64,000 nucleotides of DNA, from IMG/VR virus record IMGVR_UViG_3300021255_001366, positions 59,920 to 123,919 of that record; one strand, given 5' to 3'. Shown piece after piece: positions 3,001 to 60,149 of the stretch; positions within the stretch are counted from its first letter, which is position 1; the number at the start of each line of letters is the position of its first letter. Source of the DNA: a virus (taxonomy: Duplodnaviria > Caudoviricetes). The notes beneath the pieces were generated by a model. It had not been told where the DNA came from. It saw only the letters and a list, made by a program, of their open reading frames with translations, and did not search any database. Position numbers and translations under genes: made by a program.

Positions 3001-6000
3001 ATAGACCGAGAACCACCCTGTTCTTTATATTCACTATATTGCTTAATTATATTAGCAAGGTTGCCCTTACCTTTGCTCGTACGTTGATCAAAACTATTCT
3101 TGTCAACAAACGAAAGCATTTTATTAAAAGATTTTTCTAAATCTTTTGTATTCTCTTGTATGCCGTCGGTAACACCTTCCGAAATACTCTTGCCAACATC
3201 TTTTGACGCTTCCTTAATTGGTTCACTTGCTTGTTTTACTATATCACCCATAGAAACAACACCATTTTGAAGCTCTTGTTTTGCTTCTTCCATGGATTGT
3301 TTTACGGCTGGAGCAATACGCTCAAACTCCTCATTAATTTTCTTTATAATGACCTTTTTCCATCCAGGACTCTCGTTAGACGCATTAGTCTGATCAAAGA
3401 TAGTCTTAAGAATACTTGTTTCTCCAGTATTCATATATGCTTTGCTTAATTCTAAAATATTGTTCGCAAATCTAGCAGACGATTCATTAATAATCGAACC
3501 ATCTTTTTTTGTCTTAATCTTCGATTTATCAACAAGTGATCCTGTAATATTTTTTAAAAAATTTTTTTCGCTTGCATCAACTTTTTCAGGGATAAAGTTA
3601 AAGTATTGTTCTGCTTTTTTTAACTCTGCATTAAGTTCAGCGACATGATCTTTTTGTTTTCTCGTTTTAGACGCTATTTGTTCTGCTGGTTTAGATGCGT
3701 CTTTAGCACCTTGTATTAAGTTTTTATAGGCATCATATTCGCTTTTAATCTCATCTGCGTTTTTACTAGATTGAATAAAATTCTTCTTTTGTTCGTTGTA
3801 TATTAATCCGTTTGCATTTAATGTTTCTTCTAATTCTTTCTTACGAATCTCAGATTCTTCTTTTAAAACCTTAACGGTTTCATCATTGCTTTTAATATAC
3901 TCTTTTTGATATTTTGAGATTAATTTAATGGTTTCAAGATATTCGTTTTTAAGTTTTTGAATAGCAGTAATATTATTATTTACTTCTTGTGTATTATCTT
4001 CTAATGCAACAGTATCATTTTTAATATCACTCTGTGCGTTATTACTTTCAGAAGAAATAGAAGTAGTTGTTTTCGGTTTATTTTTTTTCTTAGTATTTGT
4101 GTTTTCAACAGTTGTTGTTGATTGCATATTACCAACATCTACAACAATCGCATTTTCAGCCAATGCTTGTTGCAGTGTTTCAACAAAACCATTAACACTT
4201 GAAATCAACGGAACAACTGGCACCTTTACTGGCTCATTTATTTGACCTTCAATTTCTGATATAAAAGTTGAAGGATCAATTTTGCCATCAATCTTAACTT
4301 TAATTGATTTAATATTCTTAATTTCTGCTTCTATTCTAGAGAGAATATTTGCAACACCAGAATCAGTTACATTTGAAAATATAGCTTGAATCTGATTAAG
4401 ATTCAATCTTATTATTTTAGTTTGTTCAACAACATTATTAATAGCATTTATTAATGGATCAAATGTGCCACTAAACGCCTTGTTATTATCTGCTAATACG
4501 GTTTGTAAATCTTTTAAAGCATTCGTAAATGTAATAAGAAGATTAACATCTTTTTCATCCGGAGTTTCATTTTTCTTATTTTTCTTTGTATCAACTTTTG
4601 TTATTTCCAAAGAATCTAATAATGTTTGAAGAGGAGTAATCTTAGTAGATATTTCTTCCAAACCTTTTGTAAAAGCAGAAGCCCAACTTTGAACTTTTTT
4701 GTCATCAAGCATAACATTAACTTCTTTGGCAAGTGTAGCCAATGAGTCTGTTATATTTAAACTAAATTCCTTTGTCAGCGCCTCAAGCTTCGCTTTTATC
4801 TTGTCTCCTTCTTCTTGAGAAATATCAAATTCAGGATAAAATTTAAAATGTTGTTCTTTAAGAGTTTGTTGTATTTGATTTATATTCTCTGTTATTCTTT
4901 GTTTTGTTTCTGGAAGATTGGTTTTGATATTTAAAACAGCGGCCTTGTCAAATTGCGAACGCATTTTTTGAAACAAATCACTATAATCATTTTTTAATTG
5001 TGGATCATCTATTTTTACGATTTGCGCTTGAATGTTTTTTAACGCCTTATTTAATTCTCCTTGTTCCGCCTTAGTTCCTTTAAATGCACCAAATCTTACT
5101 TGCACTTCAACTGGATGTTGCCCAGAATAAGAATTTAAATCATCAACAAGTCTAATGATATCTGGTTTTAATTTATCAATCGATGCTTCATCTAAAAGTA
5201 CCGGAATCCTAATTCCACCATCTTTAAATTGAAATGTTGTAACCATTTGTTCTGCGGTTTGCCCAAGACCTTTCAATGTTTCAACCATTTCAGATCTCGT
5301 TTCCGCAAGGCTTTTATTAATTGGGCTACTAATATCTTTTAAATGTTCTAACTCACCTGCAATCGAACTAAGATAAAACGTCTTCCCGCCTCTAGAAAAA
5401 TGCATTTTAGAATCTGCAAAAGAATTTTCACCATTTAATTGAACCAATCTTTTTGAAAGTTGTTCAACTTCAACTGCTGTATCTACAATTCGCTTCTGCA
5501 TATTACGAAGCGCAATAGGATCTTTTTGTGTGCCAAGCCTACTTTGAAGTTTTTCTAATTTTTCATATGCATCAACAAGATTATCTTTTAATTCTTTAAC
5601 ATTATTTGATTTAATATTGTTTTTATTATTATCTATATTTATCTTATTAAAACTTTTAATTACTTTGTCTAATTCTTCTAATTCTTTTGTTTCTTTTTTT
5701 ACATCAATTAATTCTTTGAATTCTTTAAAAGAGTCCATAGAAGACTTGGTTTCTTTTTTAAATGAATTTAATTTATTATTAACGTTTTCTATTTTTTTTA
5801 CTATCTGATCATTTTGCTGCCTACTATTTAAAGATTGATTAAACTTTGCAATATCTTGTTCAGCCCCAGAAAGCCTTACTCGGAATTCATCCATTGTAGA
5901 TTCAAATTTTTTTTGAAATCCATCAAACTGAGATGTGTCTATTTTCGAATTTGCAAAATTCTTCAAAGTATTTGAATACTCACCTTGCAAGTCTTGAAGA

Positions 6001-7457: not shown

Positions 7458-7892
7458 CTACGCAGTACGCACAATTCTAATATTTGCGTTTTGCATGAGA
7501 ATCGGCTGTGTACTCGTATTTTCTATCGCGATTACATAACAACAGCCACGGGGCACGGCAATCTCGATTGACCGATGAATGTTAAAATATTCTTCAACGG
7601 CCGCAGGAGTAACGATCATTGTACTTGCCGGAATAGGTTCGCCATCGATAGCGAGAGACGCTTGAATCGATTCGACAGTCCCTCCGGTTGGCACAGCAAT
7701 GTTTGCACCGAAGTCAACAACATATCTTGCAAATGTTGCACATGGATTGTTTACAATACCACGCACAGTAAAAATACCAGAGTCATCTCTATGAATAATG
7801 TAACCACGAGTACACGGAGAAGGCTCGTTCGTAAAAGCAGCATTACCACCAGCGATAACTGTCTGCTCTAATGAATTGCTATACTCAGCCAT
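7458..7892 (-). CDS. Hypothetical beta-rich protein, possibly a BclA-C/C1q-like jelly roll
   Basis: Alternating hydrophobic beta-strand pattern, SGIFTVRG and PRGCCY motifs; RBS ggagg. Confidence 0.55.
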   Translation of the reverse strand: MAEYSNSLEQTVIAGGNAAFTNEPSPCTRGYIIHRDDSGIFTVRGIVNNPCATFARYVVDFGANIAVPTGGTVESIQASLAIDGEPIPASTMIVTPAAVEEYFNIHRSIEIAVPRGCCYVIAIENTSTQPILMQNANIRIVRTA

Positions 7893-8002: not shown

Positions 8003-8719
8003 TTACGCTGCGTATCCACCACAAGAAGTGTAGAAATTTCCGCAGCCACATCCGTTAGGATTTGCAACAACATACGCAGGAATAGGAACTGGAGCAAGAT
8101 ATTTCTCAAGTGCATTTGTCTGCGCCTCGTTATTTGCAATAATAGCAGCGGTCTGTGCGTTCTGTGATGCAGAAAGCTGAGCCATAGTCAGCTGTTGCTG
8201 AAGAGCTGCGATTTGCTCATTCTTTGCATCTATCTTATCTGCACACATCTGATCAAGGATGCGCTGAGTCGAAGCGTTATTTGCCTCAAGTACATCTCTC
8301 AATGCGTTACCAATGGCTGAACGGTCAGCGCAAGCTTCTGTAGCAACAACATACTTTAGGTCGGCTGTTGCTGCGCGATTTTCACAACAACACTGCTGTT
8401 GAGCCATAGCAATTGTATTAATCTGATTAGTCAAATTTGCCAAAGTATTACATCTCGATACTTCAGCGCTGGCGAGTGAATTCTGAATACCGGAAATACC
8501 AGCCATTACAGCAGATTGATCAAAACCGCGCTGTACATCATTAACAACGTACTGGGTTCCACCATTACCTCCACCGTAGCCATTTCCCCATCCGCCATTA
8601 AATGCGAAAAGGAAGAGTAGTATTAACCACCATCCGGAGCCGTTATCTCCAAATCCAAAACCGCCATTACCAGTTACAGCTGCAATATCTGCAGCACTCA
8701 TTTCTGAAGAAAGTGCCAT
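8003..8719 (-). CDS. Conserved phage protein with a Gly-rich N-terminus, one TM segment, a CCC motif and coiled coil
   Basis: GWWLILLFLFAF hydrophobic segment flanked by G/N repeats, QQQCCCEN, C-terminal GCGCG. Probable start MALSSEM follows RBS aaaggag. Confidence 0.75.
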   Translation of the reverse strand: MALSSEMSAADIAAVTGNGGFGFGDNGSGWWLILLFLFAFNGGWGNGYGGGNGGTQYVVNDVQRGFDQSAVMAGISGIQNSLASAEVSRCNTLANLTNQINTIAMAQQQCCCENRAATADLKYVVATEACADRSAIGNALRDVLEANNASTQRILDQMCADKIDAKNEQIAALQQQLTMAQLSASQNAQTAAIIANNEAQTNALEKYLAPVPIPAYVVANPNGCGCGNFYTSCGGYAA

Positions 8720-8793
8720 GATTATTTCTCCTTTCAACAAAAGTCAACATGTTCTATATGTTCATTACGTGCGCACCGTAATTAGAACCTTAA

Positions 8794-9018
8794 CTAAAAA
8801 CGACCACCCATCATGTTTTGAAATTGGGTAGCCGCCTGTGAAAGTTGGTTAAACTGTTGCTGAGACATTTGTCCTGACTGCAACAGTTTTTGAACCTCTT
8901 GTCTAGGATCTCCGTTAAATGAAGACCTAAATTTATTAAATTGTGCCATCATCTGCGCCATTTGATTATTGGGGACAGGAGATTGGCTTCTAAACATATT
9001 AAACAAACTACTTCCCAT
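8794..9018 (-). CDS. Small Q/M-rich hypothetical protein
   Basis: GDPRQEVQKLLQSGQMSQQQFNQL; RBS aggag before MGSS. Confidence 0.65.
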   Translation of the reverse strand: MGSSLFNMFRSQSPVPNNQMAQMMAQFNKFRSSFNGDPRQEVQKLLQSGQMSQQQFNQLSQAATQFQNMMGGRF

Positions 9019-9928: not shown

Positions 9929-10411
9929 TTATTGTTCTGCGTTAAGCTTATCTATAATTTCATTTACGAGTTCTTCACTGATATGAAGAGACTCCTTAAA
10001 ATTGTAAAGCATCGAGGTAATGCTATATTCATTATCTCTAAAATCATCTAACACCATATCTAAAAGAGTGCTAAACTCAGAATACTCACCCTTAGGAATC
10101 GCATCCAAAATAGGAGAGAGCAACCCGTTTTCTTGAAGTAAGTCATAAGCATCAGTTGCCTTTGTTCCTTCAAATGCAATATCAATATCCGTATAAATAT
10201 CCACTAACCTCATGACAAACATAAGATAACGAGCTGGCGTGTTAATAGATATAAACTTTCTTCCATCAACAGTCTTGTGACAAGTTGCTTCAATAATCCT
10301 ATTGCACTCAGTAAGTTTCTCAATATACGGAACATACTGTTTTTTAATAACCTTCTTAAAATCGAACTTCTGGTTCGATTTAGTCTTTTTAATTAATTCT
10401 TCAATTGTCAT
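9929..10411 (-). CDS. Hypothetical phage protein
   Basis: 160-aa ORF tightly packed in the late operon. Confidence 0.6.
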   Translation of the reverse strand: MTIEELIKKTKSNQKFDFKKVIKKQYVPYIEKLTECNRIIEATCHKTVDGRKFISINTPARYLMFVMRLVDIYTDIDIAFEGTKATDAYDLLQENGLLSPILDAIPKGEYSEFSTLLDMVLDDFRDNEYSITSMLYNFKESLHISEELVNEIIDKLNAEQ

Positions 10412-12651: not shown

Positions 12652-13683
12652 TTATAAATCCCCCAAAGATTTCTGTTCAACGTTTTTAATTCCGTTCTCG
12701 TCAAAATACTTACCAATATTTTCATCAGCAGATATATCTGTGTACAAATTCACCATGTCAGCAGACTCCCAGTTCACGATATCTTGAATAACATTTGTTG
12801 GGATATTATTCTTTGCTAACATAGTGGTAAAGTAATGTCTCATAGAGTGCCAGTAAAAATCCTTACCAAGAAATCTAGTAAAACTATCTTTCCATCCATC
12901 AAGAGTCTCAGCGGCTATTGGTTGCGTCGCGTCGTCTTTACTAGGAAACAACCATTCACTCTCAATACCATTGTCTTTTCTATACTTCATCCATAAGTCA
13001 AGATACGGTTGAAATTGTTTCTTAAGAACATATACTTGAATTCTCTTACCTTGCGATCCACGTCCTTTTGTCTGGATTTTCTCCGGCGTCTTCCATAAAG
13101 AACCAAACAATACATTCTCATCATTAAAATATGAAACCTTAAATCTAGGCAGTTCAGCCTTACGTCTACCAGAATACATTGCAAGTGCAAGACAACACGC
13201 TTGACGATACTTTTCTTTTTCTACAAGATAATCAAGCAACGCCTGTAGCTCGTCATCTTCAAACACAGTCTTTTCCCGCACCGCAACGTTTACAGGAGAC
13301 TCAATCTTTTTAATAACACTTCTATAACCTTCGTACTCTTCTTCTTCATCAAGAATGTTCTCAATATAATTCGAGAGAGAAGAAATAACAGACTTTACCC
13401 TACGAACACGCTTTGGACTCCATCCCCATTCATTAATTGCATGATTTTGAAATCTTGCAAATTCACGCTTCGTAATCTCCGTAAATCTCTTATTATCATT
13501 GTGTTCAAGGTTATACACAAAGAATATCTTTAAATCAGACTCATACTGACTAATTGTATTTGGTGATCTATCAATAGATTTCAAATAATCAAGAAAATCT
13601 TTTGTTAACTCCTTATTTTCAGGAAGAACCTTAGAAAGAGATTCTTCGCTTGTAATATTATTGTAAACAGTCGATCTTCCCAT
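12652..13683 (-). CDS. Tyrosine recombinase/integrase
   Basis: SAM-like N-terminal domain (RSPNTISQYESDL), SGRRKAEL (Arg), HSMRH and catalytic Tyr in MVNLY. Confidence 0.9.
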   Translation of the reverse strand: MGRSTVYNNITSEESLSKVLPENKELTKDFLDYLKSIDRSPNTISQYESDLKIFFVYNLEHNDNKRFTEITKREFARFQNHAINEWGWSPKRVRRVKSVISSLSNYIENILDEEEEYEGYRSVIKKIESPVNVAVREKTVFEDDELQALLDYLVEKEKYRQACCLALAMYSGRRKAELPRFKVSYFNDENVLFGSLWKTPEKIQTKGRGSQGKRIQVYVLKKQFQPYLDLWMKYRKDNGIESEWLFPSKDDATQPIAAETLDGWKDSFTRFLGKDFYWHSMRHYFTTMLAKNNIPTNVIQDIVNWESADMVNLYTDISADENIGKYFDENGIKNVEQKSLGDL

Positions 13684-40002: not shown

Positions 40003-40467
40003 ATGAAAGCACAGAACACACACACACTCACGATTAATGGCAAGAACTATGCCCTCACGAACGAGGGCGCACACCTCGTAGAGGTGCTTCTCGCAACCCT
40101 CGGATCCGCACCCGTATCCGAGCCTACGCCCAAGGCTCATACTGCGGTCGCTCAGCCTACGGCTGAGAAACTGCCCTTCAAGAAGGCGGATGGCACGGTC
40201 ATCTACGGCACTGCGAAGCAGATTGCGAATTGGACACGCTACCGTGAGCACGGGGACAAGCGCACGGACGAGCAGAAGGCTCTCGGTGAAGTAATCAAGG
40301 CGAATAAGGCGAAGGAACCCGAGCGCACCCGAGCACTCGAGAAGGCTCTCGGCTTGAAGCCGAACACCCTCAAGAACACCGCTTGCACAGCGGATGAGTG
40401 CAGAGCACTCGGATGGAAGGGTACACGCAAGGAGCTGAAGGCTATCAAGGCTAAGATCCGCGCCTAA
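40003..40467 (+). CDS. First early gene; basic K/A/T-rich hypothetical protein
   Basis: RBS aaaggag, GC3-rich codons, followed by a terminator. Confidence 0.75.
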   Translation: MKAQNTHTLTINGKNYALTNEGAHLVEVLLATLGSAPVSEPTPKAHTAVAQPTAEKLPFKKADGTVIYGTAKQIANWTRYREHGDKRTDEQKALGEVIKANKAKEPERTRALEKALGLKPNTLKNTACTADECRALGWKGTRKELKAIKAKIRA

Positions 40468-40476
40468 CACACGCAA

Positions 40477-40508
40477 GGGGGCATCCGCAAGGATGTCCCC
40501 GGTTTTTT
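40477..40508 (+). terminator. Intrinsic terminator
   Basis: gggggcatcc-gcaa-ggatgtcccc hairpin followed by a T run. Confidence 0.75.
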
Positions 40509-41470
40509 GCGTCAACGGTTTTCGTTGCGGTTCGATTCCGCAAGACGCATTTCGGTAGCACAGCCGTCTGAGCCGTACGTGGTTGAGGCTTTAGGGAACG
40601 ATACCTAGAGTGGATTCCACGGCGGTTTGGTGAAGTGTGTGAATAAAACCGTGATATGCCGTAGAGATTGGACAGTCGCACCCAAGTAATAGGCGAAGCG
40701 TCACGGCAAGCCGAAAATGCAAGCGTAGGCTTAGTTGCGGTGGGTAGATAAACCTACTCCCTCACCGTAGCAAATCATAGCCGAGAAGGTGGTGAGCATG
40801 GCGAAGCCGTACACGTAAGGGGCTGGTACCCTTACACAGTAGCCGAAAGTTGGGTAACCAAGCAAGTAGAGTGTTGCGTCACGAAGCAAGCAGAGGTTGG
40901 CAAGCGATGGATGAAGTCCGAGAGGGCAGACAAGGCAGTAGGAGCTGCACCTAGTGCATCGGGGTTCGCAGAGGGCGACGCAAGAAGTGGTGGTCGCATG
41001 AAGCATAGCAAGCAAGGATGACTAGGATCAAACATAGTGGGATACGCCCCAAAAGGTGACACGCAAGTCCCGACCGAGTATAGAACTCGGTTCCCACTAT
41101 CATAAAAGGTGTGCGTGAGCGAGTAGATACTACCGAACGAGGGTATTTGCCATACATGGTTATGAGGCATGTAGCACCGTGACGGCACGACAAGAATAAG
41201 TCCGTCACTGCATAGGCGTATAGAGTAGTTCGGCAAGTCTACAAGCGGTAGCGACATCGGCAAGGGTTTCGGGTACAATCCCCCGAAGTAATTCCTACAC
41301 TTTGGGACTGCGTGAACAGTCCCCGAAATATGACGAGAAGTCAAGGAGTCGCACAGAGGTCGGCTTCGGGTAGCAAGAGTGTTGCCCGATGTGAACGGTT
41401 CGAGTCCGTAGCGATTCCATTGAGCGACAGTTGGATTATCGTAGACACCTACGGTGGTTCGACTGTACGA
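40508..41470 (+). ncRNA. Candidate giant structured ncRNA bracketed by tRNA-like elements
   Basis: About 1 kb with no plus-strand ORF, GC-rich, many GNRA-capped hairpins, T-loop hairpins near 40527 and 41395, and a closing helix 40549-40555/41323-41329. Confidence 0.55.
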
Positions 41471-41646
41471 CAATGAGGTTTTGTTACTGTCAGTCGTAGA
41501 CAGTAGCACCGTACCCACGGCGGTTTCGATGGGAGAACAGTGAGGTGAACAGTGATAACAGTGAGTGATGGTATCATCCGAGTAGGCGGAGTGGTAGTAG
41601 GTACTACGAACGAGTACCGCTACGAGATCAACGAGGGGGTGATTGT

Positions 41647-43002
41647 TTGTTTAGCGTAGAGGTTGCGATTGCTAATCAGTACGCTTGTCAGACCATCATA
41701 GACGCCGACAAGCAGTTCGAGAAGAGTTGTGCATTGTGTTGTAATACACCACGGTGTTTGCACACTCCTTGTGAAACTTGTAGAGTACAGCAGATGCACG
41801 ACTATGTAGTAGCGATGATGAAGAAAGAGGTGGCATAGCATGAACAGAAGATTCGCACTGACAGCGGTTAAGGATTTACTTGCACACAAGGAGACACTTG
41901 CAGCTTACTACCGCAACAAGATTAAGATGGCAAAGACCGAGAACGAGGTGTCACGGATTCTTGCAGAGGTACGCGAAAACTTGTAGTTGACAGAGAGGAG
42001 TAAAAATGTTATGTATGTAATGGACGGCAAGCCGTGTACACGTAGAGCGCTTCACAAGGTGTACAAGAACACGGCAAAGGGCAATGCTAGAAACTTCACT
42101 TCGTGGTTACTTGACATGAAGTGCATGGGTTATGTGATGGAGGTGGTAGCATGAGAACATACACGGTAGACGTAACGGACTATGATGGCTATAAGAGCAA
42201 GCAGATGAACATCGTCGAACTGATGACGTTTTATGCGAATGAGATCGACAAAAGAGAGTACCCGGTTTTCGAGGTATGGTTCAATGACATGAAGCGTTGC
42301 GGTTTGGTGGCGTAGGAAGGAGTAAAAATGAAAGCGAAATTAAGATTGCTCTTGGATACCATCGAGCATCCAGAGAAGTATGATTGGTCGTTCTTTGATG
42401 ACTTGTTTTGCCTTATAGGCAAGGGAACTGTTGCCTTGTTTTTGACGTACATCATCATGATAGCGTGTTTACTGATTCATGCGTAAGCGAAAGGAGAAAG
42501 CGAAATGGAAAAGAAATTTGGAGTTGTTAGCATCGAAATGGAAGATTTTATCGAGAAGATGAATGAGATGTTTGAGGCAAACTCATGCACATGGAATAAG
42601 CGTGTGGCTGTTGACTACGCAAAGAACTGCAACGTTGTTGTGGTAAAGGTGTTAGGTAACGTAGCCACAATGGACGTCAGCGCCCTTACCGACTATGGCG
42701 TTATGCTTGCCATCATGGACAAGGTAAGGGAAATGTACGGAGAGTAGTAAGCGAAAGGAGAAAACACTATGCTCGACTTAGCAAGGGAACTCGTTAAATT
42801 TGCATACGGATTCGATCCGTATGAGTGGTGGGATAACTACGACACCTTAGAGGATGCCGTAACGGAAACGTGCCGTATGCTTTATAGTAAGCCACATCGC
42901 AAGGGAATTGCGTCGGCTTTGAAGTGCATAGTGGAGTGGCATGATGACGACGAAACAGCAAGCGAAGCGGTAAAATTGTACAGAGCAGTAATGGCTCTGT
43001 AA
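41647..43002 (+). other. Cluster of short early genes (including 42151-42315, 42505-42747, 42769-43002)
   Basis: Successive 40-80 aa ORFs, most with GGAG/GAGG RBS. Confidence 0.6.
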
Positions 43003-59120: not shown

Positions 59121-60149
59121 ATGAATGGAAGACTAGAAAATAGTTTACAAATTCATAAGAAAATCGAAAATGAAATTCAGAATCTTCCGGAGTTTGTACT
59201 TGAGTGGTACTTTTATCTTAAGGCAAATAAAAAATCTGCTACAACGTGTCTTGATTATGTTCGTAAAGTTCGATTGTTTTTATCAACAATTAATGGAGAC
59301 ATTATAAATATCAAGCCTGACGATATTAAATCAAGTCATGTTACAAAATATTTCATTGACATTCAAACAAAAAGTGTGGTTGTCAACGGAAAAGAAACGA
59401 TTGAGTACACTTCGGATTCATATAGACAAACAGTGTGGTCATGCTTAAATAATCTGTTTGATTTTCTCGTAAGACAGGGATATATCGAATATAATCATAT
59501 TAAAAGGAGTAAAATTGAACGACCTAAGAATAAAGATTTAGCGAGAATAAACAGAAACAGAGTGCTTCTTGATGATGACGATTTTAGAGATATTATTGAA
59601 GCCGTTCGTAATGGTGCTGGATCTAATAAAGCAAAGGGATATCAGTATAGGTATCGCAACAGAGATTTATGTATGCTTAACATATTCATGTCTACTGGTA
59701 TAAGAAAGGGGGCATTAAGAGCAATCAATATTGAAGATATAGATATGGAGAAACGCACACTTACTGTTGTTGATAAGGGAGATATTATTCATGAATATGG
59801 ATTGTCTCAGATGACGATTGACTTTATTAACGCATGGCTAAAAGATAGATATTGGTTAAGTGGACATGATACCAATGCTTTATTTGTATCAAAAGAAGGA
59901 AATAGAATTTCGCAAAATGGAATTGACAAGATTGTTGCGAAGTATTCACAAGAAGCATTGGGGCATAAGATTAGTCCCCATAAATTGAGATCTGGATTCA
60001 TCAGCATAGTGCAAAGTAAAACGCATGATATTGAATTTGCCCGTAGAGCTGCCGGACATGCAAATGTTACAACAACACAGCGATATATTGTTACTGATAA
60101 TACAGAGAGTTTACAGGCAAGTGAAATGATTGCAGATATTCTTGACTAA
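59121..60149 (+). CDS. XerC/D-like tyrosine recombinase
   Basis: RD..MLNIFMSTGIRK, VVDKG, ALFVS, SPHKLRS and GHANVTTTQRY. Confidence 0.9.
   Translation: MNGRLENSLQIHKKIENEIQNLPEFVLEWYFYLKANKKSATTCLDYVRKVRLFLSTINGDIINIKPDDIKSSHVTKYFIDIQTKSVVVNGKETIEYTSDSYRQTVWSCLNNLFDFLVRQGYIEYNHIKRSKIERPKNKDLARINRNRVLLDDDDFRDIIEAVRNGAGSNKAKGYQYRYRNRDLCMLNIFMSTGIRKGALRAINIEDIDMEKRTLTVVDKGDIIHEYGLSQMTIDFINAWLKDRYWLSGHDTNALFVSKEGNRISQNGIDKIVAKYSQEALGHKISPHKLRSGFISIVQSKTHDIEFARRAAGHANVTTTQRYIVTDNTESLQASEMIADILD

Follow-up and report, generated by a model that had tools for sequence, protein, structure and literature searches.

Large structured RNAs of phages, such as ROOL and GOLLD, are few, and in MALAT1 a tRNA-like module (mascRNA) on a larger RNA is cut by ribonuclease P (RNase P). 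ROOL and GOLLD are structured RNAs of 500-800 nucleotides (nt) from phages and prophages and often lie beside tRNAs or tRNA islands (PMC12286853). In plant mitochondria, t-elements, which are non-decoding tRNA-like structures at transcript boundaries, are cut by RNase P and RNase Z (Forner et al. 2007, PMC1920247). The Y RNA YrlA carries a tRNA-like module with a 7-bp acceptor that is a substrate for both RNase P and CCA addition (PMC4201824). Theta ribozymes adjoin phage tRNAs as self-cleaving RNA-processing signals (PMC10879173), and phage K, a Staphylococcus Kayvirus, makes abundant long non-coding RNAs (lncRNAs), one of them with an early promoter of its own (PMC9241854). Here we analyzed a stretch of 64,000 nt (the window), which is the final 64 kb (positions 59,920 to 123,919) of the 123,919-bp IMG/VR virus record IMGVR_UViG_3300021255_001366, a record carrying direct terminal repeats. 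At the head of its early arm lies a segment free of open reading frames (ORFs), 40468-41646 in window coordinates, which is most likely the site of a folded non-coding RNA, at present a candidate, bracketed by two tRNA look-alikes. An earlier note on this DNA, made from the sequence alone, had proposed a giant RNA flanked by tRNA-like processing elements; our analysis confirmed its observation in part and supports its interpretation in part.

The segment comprises 1,179 nt between the stop codon of P0001, the first early gene, and a closely spaced series of seven small ORFs that begins at 41647. None of its plus-strand ORFs exceeds 54 amino acids (aa), which bears out the earlier observation of about 1.1 kb without such a frame. 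The gap is real but continues about 225 nt past the end given in that note, over a hairpin and a leader homologous to a related locus, L003. Each plus frame holds 18-25 stop codons, compared with about 19 expected from the base composition by our own estimate. Because each frame contains all three kinds of stop, no reassignment of a single codon opens a plus frame, and stop-codon recoding was ruled out, all three stop codons being frequent in every frame. The opposite strand has a frame with only 3 stops in 378 codons, which includes a 228-aa ORF (40832-41518, minus strand). We judge this ORF to be spurious, since a purine-rich strand is expected to have a long open frame opposite it, and neither homologs nor a coding signal were found. 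It had no relative among 5.8 billion proteins, a collection from which the ORF itself is also absent; its GC content is flat over the three codon positions (0.50, 0.52 and 0.53), its purine content at the first position is 0.46 versus 0.61-0.81 in real genes, and the encoded product would contain 0.4% Glu and 1.3% Lys. The earlier note had held that a real conserved gene on this strand would speak against an RNA, and no such gene was found. We conclude that the segment is non-coding.

Two tRNA-like elements lie within this segment on the plus strand, at the positions and with the tRNA-like folds that had been recognized from their T-loops. TLS1 (40508-40549) is a 42-nt minihelix with acceptor/T-arm geometry and a local folding energy of -15.6 kcal/mol. 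Its acceptor has 6 bp plus an A-A mismatch, its mini-hairpin 3 bp and its T-stem, which carries a TTCGATT loop, 5 bp; neither a D arm nor an anticodon arm is present. TLS2 (41345-41419) is a 75-nt cloverleaf-like tRNA mimic, called by ARAGORN at the 80% threshold with exactly these coordinates. Its parts are an acceptor of 7-8 bp (one G-U, offset 0), a D-like arm and a T-arm with a TTCGAGT loop; a long stem with a 4-nt loop occupies the position of the anticodon arm, and CCA is not encoded. The T-arm consensus GGTTCRANYCC is present in both elements (GGTTCGATTCC in TLS1 and GGTTCGAGTCC in TLS2), and in both an acceptor of about 7 bp is stacked on the T-stem (7 bp in TLS2, 6 bp plus the A-A mismatch in TLS1). 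Three of the four GGTTCGA heptamers of the whole window fall in the 1.1-kb segment. By the standard used for a canonical tRNA (a 7-nt anticodon loop, at least 29 bits or a default ARAGORN call), neither element was called a tRNA: ARAGORN at default settings and the Rfam tRNA model (RF00005) at E ≤ 10 found none, and the ARAGORN transfer-messenger RNA (tmRNA) mode at default settings found nothing. A relaxed ARAGORN call is weak when taken alone, as the 85% threshold gave 18 calls in the 124-kb genome versus 3 by default. The status of the elements as tRNA mimics is settled by the comparative data and not by the relaxed call.

For these comparisons, we used as anchor an 892-aa protein of the late arm, which matches phrog_8308 and which we take to be a YonO-type RNA polymerase. 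The anchor gave 36 related loci from IMG/VR and four from GTDB genomes; the latter are a phage-like contig of Eubacterium ruminantium ATCC 17233 (L002, identical to L044) and loci in a Lachnospiraceae metagenome-assembled genome (MAG), a Sedimentibacter MAG and a goat-rumen Bacilli MAG. We assign the window to a rumen phage with a YonO-type polymerase, whose relatives are found in Lachnospiraceae and related Firmicutes. Canonical T-arms were found on the early-arm strand upstream of the polymerase in L002, L003, L012 (two copies), L017, L018/L020, L021/L039, L023/L040 and L024, each abutting a 7-bp acceptor stem whose sequence is unrelated between phages. The loci provide 10 independent elements at or close to this position of the early arm. 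Nine of them have 7/7 acceptor pairs, at least 6 of them Watson-Crick, compared with 4.4% of controls in which the same best-of-150 search was run at 4,000 random positions (binomial P ~6e-12). Inserts of 11-77 nt between acceptor and T-arm produce minihelix, three-way and four-way forms. Furthermore, an 18-nt T-arm is identical between TLS2 and L023/L040, where it occupies the syntenic place, and the changes that separate L021 from L023 in the T-stem and in an internal hairpin of the element are compensatory. In sequence and predicted fold, TLS1 and TLS2 are thus genuine tRNA mimics of the acceptor/T-arm type that RNase P and RNase Z recognize.

In one relative, L031, the T-arm found upstream of the polymerase on the early-arm strand is that of a real tRNA (5926-5996, minus strand; Rfam tRNA, 53 bits) with anticodon UUA, which is of the ochre-suppressor type; other relatives have a tRNA mimic there. 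Similar mimics also occur in the late-arm tRNA islands of the phage group. Because of the real tRNA in L031 and the mimics in tRNA islands, the elements are probably derived from tRNAs. The other half of the window's genome contains two more non-tRNA elements with acceptor and T-arm (9955-9993 and 12859-12956), one of which sits between tRNA-Gln and tRNA-Ile. Exact 20-mers of both window T-arms had no match in IMG/VR. A phage attachment site copied from the 3' end of a host tRNA was ruled out, as such a copy would need no covarying complementary 5' acceptor strand. GTAGC, AGTAG and ACAGT each occur eight times within 40510-41646. A decayed tRNA array was likewise ruled out, as the remaining GTAGC sites have no acceptor/T-arm geometry.

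The same slot in related phages also contains long ORF-free segments. Synteny of the slot, with a 295-aa gene on one side and small early ORFs (in some loci a 702-aa gene) on the other, was shown for L002-L004; in the other loci, the element lies on the early-arm strand upstream of the YonO gene. In L021/L039 and L023/L040, an ORF-free segment of 0.7-0.8 kb ends in a tRNA-like element, and the two cores are 64-67% identical across about 590 nt. RNAalifold predicted 198 pairs for the L021/L023 core, 33 of them with compensatory double changes. Between L021 and L023, in columns 130-760, 102 pairs are unchanged, 9 have one-sided changes, 29 are doubly compensated and 2 are broken, whereas controls with the partners slid by 1-3 columns gave 0-4 compensated and about 100 broken pairs; this contrast is inflated by taking the structure from the very alignment in which the pairs were counted, and the comparison covers two lineages only. 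Still, a ratio of 29 to 2 would be hard to obtain without selection on the structure. The consensus also has long-range helices that span about 230-250 columns, and this RNA had no Rfam family match.

Other relatives show the same organization in different forms. In L002, an ORF-free slot of 1.3 kb has a Pistol ribozyme (4975-5050, minus strand; 65.6 bits, compared with a gathering score of 34.5) 27 nt past the upstream gene and a tRNA-like element at its end. L012 has a core of about 600 nt with a tRNA-like element on each side, which is the layout of the window; the upstream ORF ends within the 5' part of the first of these elements. The slot of L024 measures 1.4 kb, also with a tRNA-like element at the end. 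Altogether, at least five lineages, all with tightly packed genomes, keep an ORF-free core of 0.55-1.3 kb at the slot. These sequence comparisons support the view that the slot in related phages holds processed RNAs, namely a covarying RNA of about 600 nt and a cassette opened by a Pistol ribozyme. They further indicate that the phage group conserves the slot together with a tRNA-like element at its 3' end and that the core is fast-evolving or swappable. Two aspects of this arrangement appear to be new: the conserved early-arm slot with unrelated cores in YonO-type rumen phages, and the interchange of a tRNA mimic and a Pistol ribozyme at the 5' boundary of the slot.

The window core (40550-41344, plus strand) is a purine- and GC-rich candidate structured RNA of about 795 nt. 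Its folding z score was -3.76 on the plus strand (40 shuffles), compared with +0.84 to -1.56 (-0.55 ± 0.9) for seven coding controls of 795 nt from the same genome and with -2.6 and -2.3 for the covariation-validated cores of L021 and L023, respectively. For 40506-41425, the z scores were -4.29 (plus) and -2.71 (minus), and the absolute folding energy of 40468-41646 favors the plus strand by 79 kcal/mol. In these models, the core is shown to fold unusually stably. The predicted ensemble contains 20 local helices with a probability above 0.8 and spans of 4-108 nt, arranged in about 8-10 domains of about 120 nt or less each. Among local 120-nt windows, strongly negative values are found at the flanks, i.e., at the terminator upstream, TLS1, TLS2 and the hairpin behind TLS2. 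Cross-pairing of the two T-arms is the sole predicted long-range interaction, and we regard it as an artefact because the T-arms resemble each other. A single domain closed by a 7-bp helix, as the earlier note had pictured it, was not supported: the complementary 7-mers are there in the sequence, but the ensemble gives them a pair probability of 0.006-0.011, and the core appears to be made of local domains. Likewise, the loops quoted there as GNRA include only one true GNRA tetraloop (GAGA, at about 40916-40927).

The cassette belongs to no Rfam family. Over 40300-41750 on both strands, the core had no Rfam match at E ≤ 10, and the search that the earlier note had proposed for GOLLD, ROOL and introns came out negative at this threshold: there was no match to GOLLD in its conserved 3' domain (RF01998), to group I or II introns, to RNase P RNA, to tmRNA or to any self-cleaving ribozyme, and ROOL (RF03087) had no match in the window either at its gathering score (99.1 bits) or at E ≤ 10. 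The same Rfam library, as a positive control, detected ROOL at 265-273 bits in L025 (15111-15709), L035 (15108-15706) and L038 (14093-14684). Within the core, we found neither a promoter or terminator nor an internal processing signal. A blastn search against INPHARED phages found no core homolog, and among 401 Lachnospiraceae genomes only a match of 26-28 nt to metK, outside the core, was obtained.

We favor the reading that the segment is an early non-coding RNA cassette excised by RNase P and RNase Z at the tRNA mimics, and we give it about an even chance. The order on the plus strand is P0001, a terminator, TLS1, the core, TLS2, a 20-bp hairpin and the promoter/leader of the small ORFs. 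Transcription from an early promoter would pass the terminator into the cassette, host RNase P would cut the 5' side of each tRNA-like element, and RNase Z or 3' trimming would act at the 3' side. Cleavage would free the P0001 mRNA, ending in the terminator hairpin, and would yield a stable core RNA of about 0.8 kb with defined ends plus two small tRNA-shaped by-products. We infer that the core is transcribed, cleaved and acts as one functional RNA; our best guess is a stable trans-acting takeover RNA that could serve as a decoy, sponge or scaffold. A wider proposal, which we hold only tentatively and think rather doubtful as a whole, is that in YonO-type rumen phages the head of the early arm is a cassette slot for fast-evolving, unrelated large structured RNAs. 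These would be released at mimics or a Pistol ribozyme and would act in trans in takeover, e.g., as decoys that engage RNA-binding factors of the host or its RNA-targeting defences, and the GCAAG-rich window core would represent an unseen class, possibly partnered with P0001.

Several results weigh against excision of a functional core RNA. The terminator upstream (40477-40509, plus strand; terminator scan) is a strong intrinsic one, with a 10-bp stem, a GCAA loop and a U-tract, and it is present in the minimum free energy and centroid structures alike; no good sigma-70 promoter was found between it and the core. Expression of the core therefore depends on read-through or on an unrecognized promoter. 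The minus-strand core also has a low z score (-3.18), the local 120-nt windows in mid-core are mixed, with z near 0, and no long-range closure is predicted. Homolog collection for covariation, as the earlier note had proposed it, retrieved no core homolog in the collections searched, blastn and nhmmer against the 36 related loci and the four bacterial genomes included, and consequently there is no covariation for the window core. The cores of the window, L002, L012, L024 and L021/L023 cannot be aligned with one another. In L003, a tRNA-like element and the leader stand directly behind a 213-aa gene and the core is missing, so that TLS2 and the leader form a conserved module by themselves and the core is a variable occupant. 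TLS2, which the earlier note had taken for a flanking element of the giant RNA, is hence a real mimic whose role does not depend on a large RNA, and not simply an end-piece of that RNA.

The GC content of the segment has to be read with the same caution. It is indeed high, as the earlier note had it: 0.52-0.55 compared with about 0.37 for the genome, making this the top-GC kilobase of the entire phage. The enrichment is, however, regional and not specific to the RNA. The GC content at third codon positions (GC3) is 0.69 in P0001 and 0.51-0.62 in the small early ORFs, and falls to 0.36-0.48 in later early genes and 0.27-0.40 in late genes; the first early genes of the relatives L004 and L002 are likewise GC-elevated. 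The immediate-early DNA of the phage group thus seems to be compositionally distinct. Since the GC-richness is regional and reaches silent codon positions, it is weak evidence for RNA structure.

The same results feed the alternative that survives best, which we nevertheless consider unlikely. It holds that only the tRNA-like elements and the leader are functional, forming the ends of the flanking mRNAs in the way of t-elements, and that the core is a non-functional spacer, e.g., left-over acquired DNA in which the GC- and purine-rich composition of the early region is still visible. The arrangement in L003, the unalignable cores, the z near 0 in mid-core and a GC and purine bias common to the neighboring coding DNA, silent sites included, would all be expected of a spacer. 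However, the coding controls come nowhere near the z score of the whole core, selection on structure is clear in the syntenic L021/L023 core, and ORF-free cores have been retained in those lineages despite their tightly packed genomes, all of which argues for a functional core.

Less probable still is that the segment is a chain of independent small RNAs or modules, two of them being the tRNA-like elements, rather than one large RNA; the modules would act or be released individually. That every high-probability helix of the core is local agrees with such a chain, as does the fact that the tRNA islands of these phages also contain tRNA-like elements. None of the internal signals that would separate such modules was found in the core, however, and the L021/L023 consensus has its long-range helices.

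More improbable again, in our view, is a role for the segment as a long leader acting in cis, either on read-through of the terminator or on how the downstream small early ORFs are expressed. Its position between terminator and operon would suit this role, and its 3' 150 nt do form a conserved leader of the small-ORF early operon (41493-41646, plus strand). Positions 41493-41619 are homologous to L003 5644-5519 (nhmmer, E 4.6e-5), i.e., to the approximately 130 nt that follow the L003 element; in the JGI metagenomes, the leader pattern was found in L003 only. Three direct RAACAGTGA repeats (41532-41565) lie just upstream of an extended -10-like element, TGGTATCAT (41569-41577), which is in the L003-homologous part, and a Shine-Dalgarno sequence, GAGGGGG, is found at 41634-41640. 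The repeats and the extended -10-like element may represent a regulated early promoter. Since this promoter-like element is downstream of TLS2, the small-ORF operon probably has its own start, which counts against control by a long leader. Moreover, a leader of 0.8 kb that is not conserved between relatives would be unusual, and no known leader or riboswitch family matched.

Very improbable, and the weakest of the alternatives, is a site acting at the DNA level (an origin or packaging site, for example) or a gene for a 228-aa protein on the minus strand: the nearly open minus frame and a change of direction in the cumulative GC skew at about 39.3-39.6 kb would fit, but the encoded amino-acid composition is implausible and the ORF has the spurious character described above, we saw neither iterons nor an AT-rich unwinding element, and about 1 kb upstream divergent promoters lie where the skew turns. 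The late arm (minus strand) extends to about 39.3 kb, and the early arm (plus strand) begins at about 40.0 kb.

The gene upstream of the cassette, P0001 (40003-40467, plus strand), encodes a basic protein of 154 aa whose C-terminal half is conserved. In Logan/ENA assemblies, 15 homologs are 38-64% identical to it. The protein matched no Pfam or PHROG family, its AlphaFold model (pLDDT 75) had no fold match in the PDB, and it is found in none of the 36 related loci. Searches of IMG/VR, JGI metagenomes and GTDB genomes with P0001, its alignment and the 295-aa and 702-aa neighbor proteins gave no match. The motif GCAAG occurs 13 times in 40510-41646, 12 of them in the core, which is about 9-fold above the rest of the window. 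These motifs may be repeated binding sites, perhaps for the P0001 protein; the enrichment was not found in the cores of the relatives, which also have no P0001.

Directly after TLS2, a 20-bp hairpin (41425-41469, plus strand) was predicted by folding, with a local z score of -5.2 for 41401-41520. Its apex (41434-41461) contains 26-28 nt that are 96% identical, in the sense orientation, to the KIIVDTYGG-coding segment of metK (SAM synthetase), matching 3 of the 401 Lachnospiraceae genomes with a best per-genome E value of 1.3e-5. The likeness could be due to chance, a recombination scar or mimicry of the host metK RNA. A decayed metK gene was ruled out because the similarity to MetK ends after 8 residues.

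Some further features were noticed in the related loci. Group I intron matches of 69-77 bits in L025 (11963-12212), L035 (11678-11925) and L031 (11646-11859) fall within the YonO-like polymerase match, which is longer in those loci; some relatives appear to have an intron in their polymerase gene. L002, which may be an inducible prophage in the culturable strain Eubacterium ruminantium ATCC 17233, has a HEARO RNA (132.9 bits; 8360-8574, plus strand) just past a 291-aa gene adjoining the polymerase gene. On the minus strand of L004, a run of GGGGATTTGGGG-type G-tract repeats (8740-8800) lies upstream of the first early gene, and three operator-like palindromes of the type GGTCTAG-N3-CTAGACC (7530-7600) follow it.

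Taken alone, the window provides a well-supported non-coding locus with real tRNA mimics and a candidate RNA of about 0.8 kb. If the reading as excised cassettes is true, a conserved slot with tRNA mimics or a ribozyme would give large phage RNAs a common logic of processing signals and swappable cargo, and it would link RNA processing in bacterial viruses to the organellar principle of tRNA punctuation.

Among the known systems, a Y RNA was ruled out, as no Ro60/TROVE domain (PF05731) was found in the 124-kb genome in a search with positive controls, and no YrlA Rfam match was obtained. The likeness to YrlA lies in a tRNA-like module on a larger RNA, with the 7-bp acceptor stem as the key determinant; the phage genome itself encodes no CCA-adding enzyme. 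The lncRNAs of phage K come from an unrelated phage family and are backed by transcriptomics, whereas the window RNA is a candidate from sequence. The ROOL RNAs of the relatives lie in the late arm next to tRNA islands, whereas the window core lies in the early arm of a phage that has no ROOL in the window. As for ribozymes, the Pistol ribozyme (RF02679) of L002 sits at the 5' boundary that TLS1 holds in the window, which has no ribozyme match. The t-elements come close in that they keep the GGTTCRANYCC T-arm and the acceptor stem, as TLS1 and TLS2 do. They are organellar, flank mRNAs and have mapped cuts, whereas the phage elements lie on either side of a long non-coding core, take forms between a 42-nt minihelix and a four-way cloverleaf and are known here from sequence. 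By analogy, the window cassette would work like tRNA punctuation, in the manner of t-elements, combined with a large phage non-coding RNA.

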